Source: Eledone cirrhosa (lineage: Eukaryota). From it: a stretch of DNA of 64,000 nucleotides. Positions 6,665 through 55,790 of the stretch are shown here, piece by piece. The notes under the pieces are model-generated. The model saw only the letters and a list, made by a program, of their open reading frames with translations, ran no database searches and had not been told where the DNA came from. A program made the translations under genes and the position numbers. The stretch spans positions 316,324,001 to 316,388,000 of the forward strand of contig OZ024740.1 in the NCBI GenBank assembly GCA_964016885.1, given 5' to 3'. Position 1 is the stretch's first letter. The number at the start of each line of letters is the position of its first letter.

Positions 6665-7010
6665 CTATATATACATTCATATATATATAGCTATTTCAGA
6701 GCGCCAATTCTAATTTTCAATTTCTGCTTGACCGGCAACCGCTCTGTATAATCAGTTCCTGATTATTACTAGAAATTCTATAAGAATCAAACATTCATGA
6801 TTTTCAGCAAACAGGTGGGGTACTTGGCTTTGATAAGTACCAATCAGTACGAAACATGGCTCTGTCAGCTTTTTCTCCCCGTTTGCTGAAAATTTAAAGT
6901 AAGTGAGACTGTCACTACTCTAAAACAATAGCATAAGGTCTTCGAAATGCTTTTAATTAAGCATACAGTGTATTGCAAAATACACTATATATACATTCAT
7001 ATATACATAT
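6665..7010 (+). mobile_element. Non-coding ~320-bp retrozyme-like element, family A, copy 1
   Basis: Direct terminal redundancy (ctatatatacattcat at 6665 and 6985); homologous to 44898-45295 and 49968-50190; contains an HHR; its left end (4851-4887) was split off by the RTE insertion. Confidence 0.8.
6826..6870 (+). ncRNA. Type I hammerhead ribozyme, U3-A8 core variant
   Basis: ggct-TTGATAA-gtac(caatca)gtac-GAAA-ca(tggctc)tg-TC-agct; stem I extends over 6800-6893. Confidence 0.85.
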
Positions 7011-7037
7011 ATATATATATATATATATATATACATA

Positions 7038-9640
7038 CCCCACAGCCAGAAATAAATTTCAAAGCATATTACTTGATGCTTTCGATAGTAAGGAAGAGCA
7101 TCTAGAATCGGACAATATAGAGGGACAGTGGGAATTTCTGAAAGCAAACCTGCTGTTGGCGACAGACGAAGTCTGTGGCTGGAGCAGGCCTGTAGGCAGG
7201 AGGAGAGTAACATGGTGGTGGAACAGTAGGGTGGAGGGGTCAATTAAGGCCAAAAAGCAGGCTTGGAAAGTATGGAGGGATGGGGGAAGTAGAGTAGACT
7301 ATCAAGTGGCCAGGAGGGAAGCTAGGAGTGAAGTGTACTTAGCAAGAAGGGAAGCTGAGGAAAGAAAGTTCAAGCATGTTCTACAACGCGATGACCAAAA
7401 ACGTGAGGTGTTCAGGATTGCCAGGCAATGCGTCAAGGAAAACCGTGATATTGTCGGGGAGAAGTGTGTACTTAACGATGATGGCATACTTGCCATCACC
7501 GACACTGATAAGAAGGTAGCTTGGAAGTGTCACTATGAAAGGCTACTAAATGAGGAGAATAAATGGGAGAAAGACAGTCTCCCCCATATCGACCCGATAG
7601 AGGGACCAGCAGTGTTAGTCGAGGGGAGTATAATAAGTAAGGCAATCAAGGATATGAAGACTGGTAAGGCGGCTGGGCCTTCGGAAATAGTTGCTGAGAT
7701 GCTGAAGGCATCTGGCACGGTGGGACACACCATGGTCACCCGCATAGTTAACCAAGTCGTACAGAATGGGGTTGTTCCGAAGGACTGGCATAGCAGCATC
7801 ATCGTTAACTGTTATAAGGGTAAAGGAGACGCCCTAGATAGGAGTAACTATAGAGGCATAAAATTAATCGACCAGGTCATGAAGGTCACGGAAAAAGTAA
7901 TAGCGCAACTAATCAGAGAGAGAATTGATCTAGATGAAATGCAGTTCGGGTTTGTGTCAGGCAAAAGCACCACAGACGCTCTTTTCATAGTACGACAACT
8001 ACAGGAGAAGTACCTAGCTAAAGGTAAACCCCTCTACTTAGCTTTTGTCGACCTGGAGAAAGCCTTCGACAGAGTCCCCCGCTCCATTATCTGGTGGGCT
8101 CTTAGAAAACTAGGCGTTGACGAATGGCTTGTGAGGGCTATACAAGCCATGTATAAAGAAACAGTCAGCAAGGTTAGAATTAACAACGAATATAGTGAAG
8201 AGTTTAGCGTAAAAGTTGGCGTCCATCAGGGCTCTGTTCTCAGCCCCCTACTATTTATTATTGCCCTTCAGGCTATAACAGAGGATTTCAAGACAGGCTG
8301 CCCATGGGAACTCCTATACGCAGACGACCTGACACTCATAGCGGAATCAATGGCCGAGCTAGAGAAGAAATTCCAAACATGGAAGCACGGCCTAGAGTCA
8401 AAAGGACTTAAAATTAACCTGGCTAAGACCAAAGTTCTAGTTTGTAGGAAAGAAAACAAGGCGGCGGTCCCTTCTGGGAAATGGTCGTGCTCGGTATGTA
8501 GGAAAGGCGTAGGTAGAAACTCCATCTTATGTCCTAAATGCAAAGTATGGGTGCATAAAAGATGTAGTGGGATCACAGGTAAGCTAACTAAGAACATAGA
8601 CTTTACATGTGGCCGATGTTCTGGTGCAATAAGTAGCAGCAAGTGCCCACAAAATACTAGCTCTTTCAATTGCGCAGAGGGTTCTATAGAAATAGTGGAC
8701 GGCTTCCGTTACCTGGGCGATAAAATCAGCAGTGGGGGAGGGTGCTCTGAAAGTACTGTAGCTAGAGTCAGAACTGGTTGGAAAAAGTTCAGAGAGCTTA
8801 TACCACTATTAGCTGCTAAAGGGTTCTCCCTAAAAATGAAAGGCAGGTTGTACGATGCCTGCATACGAACAGCAATGTTGCATGGCAGTGAGACCTGGGC
8901 ATTGTGTGCAGAGGATATACGCAGACTAGAGAGGAACGAAGCTTGCATGCTCCGCTGGATGTGTAACAGTAATATACGTGAACGGCAAAGCATAAACGAA
9001 CTAAGGAAAAAATTAGAGATAAGAGGGATCAGATGTTGTTTACTCGAGAGAAGGCTGCGTTGGTATGGACACGTGATGCGCATGAAAGTCGATAGCTGTA
9101 TTACAAAGTGCAGGGCAATAAAGATAGACGGTAGCCACGGAATAGGCAGACCTAGAAAAACATGGGATGAGCTGATAAACTCCGACCTCACACACTTACA
9201 CCTCTCCAAGACAATGTCACTGGACCGTGACCTTTGGCGGTACTCAGTAACAGAGAAGACCCGCCTTGCCAGTAGGCATCTCTAACAAAATACACCCCGT
9301 CCCGCCACCACCCCCACCCCATCCACACCACCCCGTTCTATGTAAAGTTATGTTGGTGCCGCGCCATCCAGGCCGAAACAAATGAGATCGTGTAGGTGTC
9401 ACGACAAAAAAACACACAGTCCACGCTGTAATGTGGCCGTGTAGGCAACACGGTAAAAACCTCCCAGACCCACACTGTAAATGTGGTTGGTGTTAGGAAG
9501 GGCATCCAACTGTAGAAAACCTGCCAGACAGTCCTATGCGAGCAAGACAATCACTCTTGCCTCAAGTGGGACTACCCCCGTCCAAACCCATGCAAGCGTG
9601 GAACACGGACGTTAAACGTTGATGATGATGATGATGATGA
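7038..9640 (+). mobile_element. RTE-clade LINE, 5'-truncated, with uninterrupted ~750-aa RT region (to 9285)
   Basis: Full RT motif set (YKGKGD, NYRGI, QFGF, DLEKAFD, QGSVLSP, YADD, FRYLG); APE domain missing; (GAT)n tail. Confidence 0.96.
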
Positions 9641-54720: not shown

Positions 54721-55279
54721 CGGGATTCGCAATTTCTACGATTTCAATATTGACACAACAGTCCGTCAGGTTTTTCGGCACATGTTGCTCCGATAGGAAT
54801 CTCAACGTGATTTTCACTTAATTCGTAAGTGTTCAGTCTTCCGTATGCTTTTATTTTTTTATTGATACAACATCGACTACAATCATCTAACTTCACTTTG
54901 TAGGCTAGACGCGAATCACAAGAAAAACAATCCTCTGATATACCCCCCCCCCCCTCATTCTTTGGTCTACCTAGATTTCAATTGCTATATCCTTTGCTTT
55001 TGTACGGCTGTACATTTGACAATGTCGCAAAACATTATTCCACTTGATTCTTACCTTTCAGCTATGAATTGGGCAGTGCCTTAAAATCCCGGTTTATTTG
55101 CGTGCAATTTTTTGGAATCTTATGAATGGAGAATCGAAAACAATTGTTACAATTGTTTCGCCGGCGGACAGCTCGAGACGCGATCATTGTGTGGTTCTGT
55201 CTGATTCTGGACCGGCGGGTTCGACGGACACCTCTAATGATTTCGGAGCATATTCTTCCACTGGGGTATCTGACCCTGT

Positions 55280-55790
55280 GGGCCAGTACTGGCAATAACA
55301 AAACCCATAGGAATAACAAATATAGAACTAAACAGAGAAATAGACAACGACCGCCAGAAATAACCGAACCGAACACTAATATAGGGACCCTCAGGAACTA
55401 CAGAAAATCCAGAGATAGGAAATACTTATGGTTCAATCCAATATTCAACTCCTCTTCAAAAACCAACCTACCCTCTACACTCCCCATTCGGTTCAGTTAT
55501 TTTTGGTACTCGTTGTCTATTTCTGCGTTTAGTTCTATATTTGTTATTCCTATGGGTTATTGTTTCGATTCTCCGATGTATCTATAAATACCAATGCCAT
55601 GTGTTAAACCCTCCAGTGTTCCGATGATTTGATCAGACACACACACTGTATTTAAGGTCGAGTGACACAACTTCGAGTGATTAACGGCCTTTAGACTCAC
55701 CTGATCAATGAAACAATTGTTAATACTATAAATAAAACCCTTTTTGTACAGCCAATCATGTTATTCTTCACTCTTTCACTATTATTATTC
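55280..55790 (+). mobile_element. PLE remnant: linker-coding fragment, ~80-bp inverted repeat and HHR-bearing 3' end
   Basis: RKYLWFNPIFNSSSKTNLP resembles the PLE linker FFNPPFNLNVSTNLP; ~55295-55372 is an inverted copy of ~55487-55564. Confidence 0.6.
55615..55727 (+). ncRNA. Type I HHR with CCGATGA core and ~65-nt stem II insertion
   Basis: agtgtt-CCGATGA-t-ttgatcag..ctgatcaa-t-GAAA-caattg-TT-aatact, then AATAAA. Confidence 0.78.

Follow-up and report, generated by a model that had tools for sequence, protein, structure and literature searches.

By what means do repeats that carry a ribozyme and encode no protein spread through an animal genome? The question is raised by a 64-kb stretch of the 3.0-Gb Eledone cirrhosa assembly (contig OZ024740.1, positions 316,324,001 to 316,388,000), here called the window, in which Penelope-like elements (PLEs) and repeats without an open reading frame (ORF) lie at (TA)n tracts, and both kinds carry hammerhead ribozymes (HHRs). 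Non-coding HHR repeats known as retrozymes yield circular RNA and are probably PLE-moved, according to Cervera & de la Pena (2020, PMC7229834). Li, Clavereau & Pollet (2026, bioRxiv 10.64898/2026.07.22.740005) regard them as non-autonomous PLE derivatives, arguing from co-occurrence and from homology to the pseudo-long terminal repeats (pLTRs) of PLEs, and report cleavage of 1/9 dimers. The window was analysed by self-BLAST, ORF lists and an HHR descriptor scan. Three of its repeat families, RzA, RzB and RzC, can be read as retrozymes in (TA)n that bear a PLE footprint, and they have probably been copied in trans by a Penelope reverse transcriptase (RT)/GIY-YIG protein. An earlier note on this DNA had proposed such mobilisation. 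The proposal stands as likely, on a two-end footprint common to retrozymes and PLEs; the idea itself was already published, and no PLE parent was found in the window. The non-coding repeats of the window are given here, with short and long ends referring to two fixed 3' termini described below.

6666-7008 (+): RzA subfamily A2, 317-nt unit; single arm slightly longer than the unit, ending in (TA)n; its HHR has the core TTGATAA at 6830.
44686-45295: RzA subfamily A1, inverted pair; arms 44686-44898 (-) and 44898-45295 (+); HHR cores at 44860 (-) and 45093 (+).
49876-50190: RzA subfamily A3, inverted pair; 49876-49971 with the long end, 49968-50190 with the short end; HHR core at 50015.
36885-38025 (-): RzB, 591-nt unit repeated 1.9 times; core TTGATAA in each of two HHRs (37630 and 37039); (TA)n at both ends.
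35285-36826: RzC, HHR-bearing tandem element of 1.85 kb without an ORF, inverted pair; the long arm, 35285-36298 (-), has the short end and the other arm, 36307-36826 (+), the long end.

The two short non-coding families that had been claimed, of 318 nt at three sites and of 591 nt at one, are thus present as RzA and RzB. RzA units measure 316-318 nt and fall into three subfamilies in the window; the RzB unit is 591 nt. Each unit holds one type I HHR with the core TTGATAA, which in RzB has a 57-nt stem II and a palindromic stem III. The units are arranged head to tail in arrays of up to 11.8 units and are dispersed across many contigs. GC content is 0.33 in RzA and 0.42 in RzB, and the longest ATG-initiated ORF on the circularized unit is 28 aa and 75 aa, respectively. 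Circular folds of both are more stable than shuffles (z = -3.7 to -5.2). No LTR structure was seen in 100+ RzA/RzB loci, with no search aimed at a primer-binding site or polypurine tract. Exact HHR-motif matches number 2,967 for RzA and 5,846 for RzB genome-wide, and TTGATAA is the core in 96 and 99, respectively, of the first 100 matches listed. Mean pairwise difference among best hits, a choice that makes families appear young, is 0.5% for RzB and 0.9% for RzA1, compared with 1.0% for PLE3 and 1.1% for PLE1; PLE2, PLE4 and PLE6 are older (4-6%). On these features RzA and RzB classify as young non-LTR retrozymes. RzA is also present in contigs of three runs from three labelled organisms (two at low depth), in which no core-box change of at least 10% is listed and ends, strand and circles are not visible.

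RzC has a pLTR-to-pLTR unit of 1,853 nt in locus L131, and its longest stop-free frame is 91 aa. Loci L130, L131 and L133 gave no match to PLE protein. As an ORF-less tandem unit with an HHR, it too classifies as a non-LTR retrozyme. Its window HHR (36576-36633, core CTGATGA at 36580) has a changed GAAA box and is damaged relative to the family.

The insertion footprint carries the argument for the mover. A position-ordered sample was taken from contig C1, the window's own, with 15 distinct insertions each of RzA and RzB; duplicates (L322, L331, L299) and second halves of one insertion were counted once. Of the arm 3' ends in these loci, 47/51 have (TA)3 no more than 4 nt downstream, as judged by eye; for random positions the figure is 6.3%. 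The ends themselves are fixed. Measured from the predicted cut, RzA stops at +137-140 (about +140) or +160-172 (about +166), and RzB at +77-81 or +245-253 (about +245). Every fixed end sits at 1-4 nt of TA microhomology. Inverted tail-out pairs make up 21/30 insertions, and 19 of these 21 have one arm per fixed site; two have one arm elsewhere, and none has both arms at the same site. In the window's A1 pair the minus arm stops at +137 and the plus arm at +166. Among best-hit sets, inverted loci are asymmetric in 12/12 for RzB, 16/24 for A1 (two same-end, six with one odd end) and 6/8 for A2. Genome-wide, then, the non-coding families are high-copy, TA-biased and equipped with inverted tails.

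The PLEs behave in the same way. PLE1 is asymmetric in 7/7 loci where both arms reach the pLTR end (two further inverted loci do not), PLE5 forms five asymmetric pairs (L097, L098, L246/247, L259, L262/263), and the window copies of PLE1, PLE3 and RzC are likewise asymmetric. All six inverted copies of elements' own 3' ends that the earlier note had listed were recovered by self-BLAST:

19805-19870/23753-23688, 31181-31408/34249-34049 and 35287-35584/36653-36307: inverted-copy pairs (PLE1, PLE2 and RzC).
43889-43978/38121-38032, 44686-44886 and 49876-49971: further inverted copies (PLE3, A1 and A3).

A tail at one end only is typical of PLEs (PMC8557442). In Poseidon the tail is tied to two internal RT start sites, and the PLE protein, a predicted dimer, cuts and extends both strands (PMC11167929). 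ORF-less repeats that carry this PLE-like two-end footprint are therefore likely to be mobilised in trans by PLE protein, and this is the main evidence for the mover. The proposed mechanism has two steps. (i) A PLE dimer would nick both strands of a (TA)n site. (ii) On one and the same RNA species, reverse transcription would be primed internally at two places, each beside a short TA microhomology. L127 holds one insertion outside (TA)n, with a target duplication of 12 bp; what looked like an RzA-PLE3 chimera (L002/L127) proved to be a nested insertion with this duplication. RzB 5' ends fall within 10 nt of the cut site in 4/37 arms (1.3 expected), a weak excess.

The same junctions bear on a simpler account, that the repeats are satellites spread at the DNA level or by RTE-type LINEs (long interspersed nuclear elements), with the (TA)n location following from tract abundance. 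RTE-like LINEs are present, tracts of (TA)6 or more occur 18 times per 10 kb, and one RzB array (L126, below) has expanded at the DNA level. LINEs can produce 5' inversions. On the other side stand the 47/51 ends at TA against 6% by chance, the two fixed internal ends, one per arm, the lack of a poly(A) or repeat tail, and the dispersal over many contigs with random 5' ends. The junction pattern largely refutes this account, and we regard it as very improbable.

Several related repeats were met along the way. RzD, met in flanking sequence, is a 311-nt tandem retrozyme, 69% identical to RzA and with a canonical C3-G8 core (L003:1-560, L044:1-900, L060:2552-3591, L097:2723-3236); it stops at the same long site as RzA. 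Older RzB subfamilies (L284, L291, L293 and L303; 72-88% identity) keep the same two ends. L381 (G000:C3:226889000-226898999) holds an ORF-less repeat of ~650 nt, with a U3-A8 hammerhead like that of RzB, inserted in an RTE-like LINE.

The template copied by the PLE protein is a closer question. A ribozyme-cut, ligated monomer circle, giving cDNA longer than one unit, is somewhat favoured; otherwise the template would be an uncut multimer. Across 40 RzB loci (L126 excluded), 44/59 shared variants occur in all units of an insertion and 22/31 on both arms, and among private variants 15 occur in all units and 59 in some. This haplotype sharing fits one monomer circle per insertion, and equally a homogeneous multimer.

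A number of results weigh against mobilisation by PLE protein from such circles, and they concern both mover and template. PLE5 has one same-end pair (L260/261). RzA 5' ends do not pile up at the cut site, and no clear 5' pile-up was seen. The search for a driver found nothing firm in 24 comparisons (blastn and local alignment) of RzA, RzB and RzD with the pLTRs of eight PLE or PLE-like families, namely PLE1-6, a U3-A8 PLE in L132 and one abundant short HHR family, from a genome with dozens of PLE-like families; weak hints were a 22-nt RzB/PLE3 match and a 28-nt match between RzD and another family, mostly HHR core. In Xenopus, pLTR homology is reported for 24/57 retrozyme families (bioRxiv 10.64898/2026.07.22.740005). 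(TA)n targeting is common to Hydra, Neptune and Naiad elements, and thus picks no clade. The structural covariation of the ribozyme speaks in favour, with 97% of cells paired across nine sequences and 7/12 pairs doubly changed, U3-A8 versus C3-G8 (RzD) among them, 0/500 shuffles matching and slid controls at 25-42%; its limit is that the nine sequences are related, so the result is not a probability. Of the RzB shared variants, 15/59 are discordant, five of them from L128, whose arms differ. A1 haplotypes share 1/54 variants in all units, and are uninformative because the copies are near-identical. L126 (G000:C3:51373600-51383500), an RzB array of 11.8 units, has dimer-period variants, so DNA-level expansion also occurs; the array suggests a retrozyme turning satellite, possibly via unequal crossover.

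With regard to age, PLE1 (1.1%) and PLE3 (1.0%) match the young retrozymes. The L132 element (L132:2386-7850) belongs to a different PLE clade (CxxC linker, YIG), and the hammerhead in its pLTR has the U3-A8 core TTGAAAA; the same motif recurs in L073, L087, L190 and L205.

The chief competitor on the template side holds that PLE protein copies an uncut, multimeric read-through transcript of the repeats, with no role for circles, and that arrays are renewed at the DNA level. Unprocessed RNA is the main PLE substrate in vitro, and HHR mutants still insert (PMC11167929). Moreover, 8/9 Xenopus retrozyme dimers did not cleave (bioRxiv 10.64898/2026.07.22.740005), L126 shows higher-order duplication at the DNA level, and haplotype sharing fits either template. 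Uncut multimers fit less well with the compensatory changes that preserve the ribozyme across subfamilies, with the 15 private RzB variants found in every unit of their insertion, and with the commonness of 2-6-unit arrays, although 5' truncation should shorten them every round. Circles have been shown for coral, mussel and axolotl retrozymes (PMC7229834). This competitor is credible, with a chance that falls short of even; the monomer circle is retained as the preferred template. Its U3-A8 core is likely an active, compensated variant.

The window holds four PLE copies, three Hydra-type and one Neptune-like, all broken by stops or frameshifts. Two further Hydra-type families are represented by 3' fragments.

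19805-23916 (+): PLE1, Hydra-type; inverted short pLTR end 19805-19870; broken RT-endonuclease (EN) ORF 19830-22200; long-tailed pLTR ends at (TA)n.
23668-23712 (+): PLE1 hammerhead, core CCGAAGA (U4C).
31126-34990 (+): PLE2, Hydra-type; inverted pLTR 31126-31437; broken ORF 31401-33381; 3' untranslated region; second inverted copy 34251-34990.
31143-31193 (-): PLE2 hammerhead, core CAGAAGA (U4A) at 31188.
38032-44019 (-): PLE3, Neptune/Nematis-like by motifs; minimal HHR with core CTGACGA at 38278; at 43889-44019 an inverted pLTR end with a 40-nt tail.
44594-44633: PLE2-family remnant of 40 nt, holding short end (inverted) and long end, between (TA)n and (TAT)n tracts.
45376-49690 (-): PLE4, Hydra-type, nearly full unit; canonical HHR core CTGATGA at 45561; 18-nt direct pLTR remnant at the 5' end.
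50566-51943 (+): PLE5, fifth Hydra-type PLE by family number, 3' fragment; HHR 51839-51915, core CCGACGA at 51850, stem I 11 bp.
55297-55860 (+): PLE6, sixth Hydra-type PLE by family number, 3' fragment; HHR 55615-55727, core CCGATGA at 55621, stem II insert 81 nt.

Self-BLAST, ORF lists and the HHR scan bore out all items listed earlier, including the four PLEs and the adjoining (TA)n tracts. What changed was the identity of three supposed orphan HHR 3' ends (cores at 36580, 51850 and 55621): all exist, two being the 3' ends of the coding Hydra elements PLE5 and PLE6 and the third belonging to the 1.85-kb ORF-less RzC. Translations of PLE1, PLE2, PLE4 and PLE5 have the Hydra motifs, which are an RWK-like motif, DKT, a CxCX5C linker (its last C altered in the PLE2 window copy), and a C-terminal EN without CCHH and with CxxC and CxH. 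PLE6 is placed in this type by tblastn similarity alone. A search made for the placement of the Hydra-type PLEs returned 103 relatives, none of them named. PLE5 has the layout HHR-ORF-HHR in locus L134. (TA)n insertion, pLTRs and inverted copies of PLE1, PLE2, PLE4, PLE5 and PLE6 are also as in the Hydra clade. Pfam found no domain in the Hydra ORFs (0/7 pieces at E<=0.001). PLE3, interrupted in the window at 41937-43258, has a CX4CxxC linker, CCHH in the C-terminal EN, an RVT_1 match (E=1.7e-4) and a minimal HHR with a bulge after A9 that is kept in 20/20 loci; by motifs read from its translations it groups as Neptune/Nematis-like. The pLTR tails of PLE1 (23770-23800) and PLE4 (45440-45465) have a conserved motif of ~20 nt in common, a candidate protein-binding signal. 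A conserved hairpin at 34021 is not a hammerhead.

The HHR scan of the window returned eight motifs at a score of at least 8, against 0.35 in shuffles. Three catalytic cores had been claimed, CUGAUGA, UUGAUAA and CCGANGA; these are present, and a fourth, CAGAAGA of PLE2 at 31188 (-), had been missed. CUGANGA occurs in PLE3, PLE4 and RzC, UUGAUAA in RzA and RzB, CCGANGA in PLE1, PLE5 and PLE6, and CAGAAGA in PLE2. Among Hydra-type families only PLE4 is thus canonical, with C4 in PLE1, PLE5 and PLE6 and A4 in PLE2. The variants extend well beyond the window. The PLE1 motif has 345 matches, with C4 in 96 among 100 listed; its window hammerhead (23671) has a damaged stem I, which is intact across the family. 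The PLE5 motif has 980 matches, and among 100 listed 69 have CCG, 25 CTG, 1 CCA and 5 another sequence; its U4 and C4 copies cluster as lineages of similar age (24/33 rows kept). Decay of CpG as the source of PLE5 U4 copies is ruled out by the 25 CTG versus 1 CCA. C4 is found in 7/12 PLE6 copies examined. The A4 motif of PLE2 has 16,099 matches, with A4 in 100/100 listed, and occurs six times in a 600-kb genome sample and not at all in shuffles. In the C4 and A4 motifs every core position but 4 is kept and stems I-III form. Judged by sequence, the variant cores are real and family-wide.

Rfam returned no more than three HH9 hits, all below threshold (22.7-24.4 bits, gathering score 52), and matched none of the other window motifs, so the expectation that standard searches miss these HHRs is borne out; Rfam microRNA matches on TA palindromes are spurious. 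U3-A8 is known from Schistosoma PLE HHRs (PMC4209133), and a U3-A8 HHR is active (PMC3088659). U4C is described as a single viroid variant of low in vitro activity, functional in vivo (PMC3088659). In the Hydra clade, 26/26 HHR rows of File S2 have a CUGANGA core (PMC8557442). That set was found by a canonical descriptor, so a noncanonical core is compatible with Hydra membership.

For the four Hydra families with U4C/U4A cores, the prediction is a ribozyme that works more slowly and is tolerated. They could also be dead relics, hitchhiking on PLE families that no longer need cleavage. U4C does reduce in vitro activity (PMC3088659), and Naiads have spread without canonical HHRs (PMC8557442). 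The A4 motif folds no better than shuffles (z 0.62), a covariation test is impossible within one family, and PLE5 C4 copies are not younger than U4 copies (3.2% versus 3.6%, p=1.0), so that the idea of a younger C4 lineage is unsupported. On the other side, four separate families retain stems I-III, the stem II base mismatch of Hydra type and the whole core apart from position 4, and the viroid U4C variant is functional in vivo (PMC3088659). We consider relic status possible and rather unlikely.

Whether the window forms a linked system was also raised by the earlier note, and here the claim failed: HHR density equals genome background, and RzA is unpaired with PLE4 elsewhere. The background sample comprised 60 evenly spaced 10-kb stretches (L186-L245, 600 kb). 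It holds about 64 credible HHRs per 600 kb, compared with eight motifs per 64-kb window, or ~1 type I HHR per 10 kb. By core these are 50 CUG, about 4/11 UUG after removal of one satellite and a duplicate, 6 CAG and 4 CCG; the shuffled sample gave at most one motif per core class. The idea that these PLE copies drive neighbouring satellites as a local module draws on three RzA insertions in 64 kb, against a genome mean of about one motif per Mb, two of which flank PLE4, and on variant cores in 7/8 window motifs against about 14/64 in the random sample. Beyond the window, RzA lies near PLE4 in 0/19 PLE4 loci and PLE4 in 1/57 RzA loci; none of the four PLE copies is intact, each of the three RzA copies belongs to a different subfamily, and the window was chosen for richness. 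A local module is scarcely to be entertained. The window is ordinary nesting of TA-seeking elements, neighbours because of shared (TA)n targeting and nesting, and holds no linked module.

The sampled HHRs come from dozens of families, and PLE ORF pieces occur in 14/60 stretches. One abundant HHR family (11 motifs/600 kb) often takes the form of tiny inverted pairs with two fixed ends (L018:740-790, L144, L184, L199, L241 and others). Other features of the window are as follows.

5186-6460 (-), 6961-9285 (-) and 10309-10994: RTE-like LINE copies; RT with an internal PHD/C1-like zinc finger; the copy at 6961-9285 has a stop-free frame of 774 aa.
4405-4611, 13402-13467, 24650-24835, 30466-30581, 35059-35268, 56967-57112 and 62918-63112: seven copies of a ~190-nt repeat resembling a short interspersed nuclear element.
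16375-16663, 25341-26007 and 59449-59586: near-perfect long palindromes with (TA)n at their centre or their borders, probably the product of fold-back duplication.
52600-54700: GC-rich decayed tandem array of 81-87-nt period.

Comparison with known systems separates what is in print from what is new. Like metazoan non-LTR retrozymes (PMC7229834; bioRxiv 10.64898/2026.07.22.740005), the repeats form tandem units that lack an ORF, hold a single type I HHR, are low in GC and occur in thousands of copies, and they coexist with PLEs, by which mobilisation has been proposed. They differ in the U3-A8 core of RzA and RzB, the 57-nt stem II of RzB and the lack of a pLTR parent among the families compared. 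For metazoan retrozymes, the sections consulted of those two reports describe neither (TA)n targets nor frequent inverted pairs whose two ends are fixed, and RzC, at 1,853 nt, is longer than any unit in the preprint (51-972 bp). The Hydra-type PLEs resemble the Hydra clade (Craig et al. 2021, PMC8557442) in the C-terminal GIY-YIG, RW(K/R), DKT, CxCX5C linker and CxxC/CxH around E and N, and in (TA)n targets, inverted 5' copies, a one-end tail and an HHR mismatch at the stem II base. In contrast to the published CUGANGA, 4/5 Hydra families here have C or A at position 4; units are 3.7-4.3 kb versus mostly <3 kb, and tails 65-170 nt versus 30-40. Poseidon PAc of Anolis (Frangieh et al. 2024, PMC11167929) likewise starts reverse transcription at two internal sites, which lie downstream of the HHR and set the tail, has an AT-rich target and extends both strands. 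Its start site lacks target homology, whereas each end here is at 1-4 nt of TA microhomology, on non-coding passengers too. Minimal HHRs of Schistosoma PLEs and natural core variants (PMC4209133, PMC3088659) share U3-A8 covariation and the U10.1-U11.1 mismatch; compared with the single viroid U4C variant (PMC3088659), U4C is here near-fixed in high-copy retrotransposon families. The main text of an octopus repeat annotation (PMC13282606) has no mention of ribozymes or retrozymes by term counts. Literature searches, with Lunse et al. 2017 (PLE hammerhead variants) and the supplements of PMC4209133, PMC3088659 and the 2026 preprint outside their scope, turned up no publication on hammerheads with U4A, on PLEs with U4 variants or on the ends of retrozyme insertions. 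Earlier papers already cover PLE hammerheads, U3-A8, U4C in a viroid and the view of retrozymes as passengers of PLEs. New, as far as these searches reach, are an insertion-level PLE signature on retrozymes, U3-A8 retrozymes, a 1.85-kb ORF-less member and family-wide U4C/U4A.

These findings bear on how PLEs and their passengers work. A bolder reading, less likely than not, is that a small circular RNA offers a PLE dimer two fixed priming sites, with one arm written into each strand of the (TA)n site, so that these retrozymes would be minimal natural PLE cargo; that Hydra-clade hammerheads have escaped the conserved U4, with U, C and A all having spread (A in >16,000 copies), because PLE protein assists or benefits from slowed cleavage; and that strict-core surveys would then undercount animal ribozymes by whole families. 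Descriptor and Rfam searches miss families of 10^3-10^4 copies, and the extrapolated genome load of about 3x10^5 hammerheads is itself notable. Family-wide U4A/U4C cores probe the required in vivo conservation of the hammerhead core. The mover of animal retrozymes has so far been argued from co-occurrence and pLTR homology; paired asymmetric ends are insertion-level evidence, and the two fixed ends name exact RNA sites for an in vitro PLE assay. Were PLE protein to insert a 318-nt RNA at (TA)n, that RNA would mark out the minimal cis signals which PLE retrotransposition requires.

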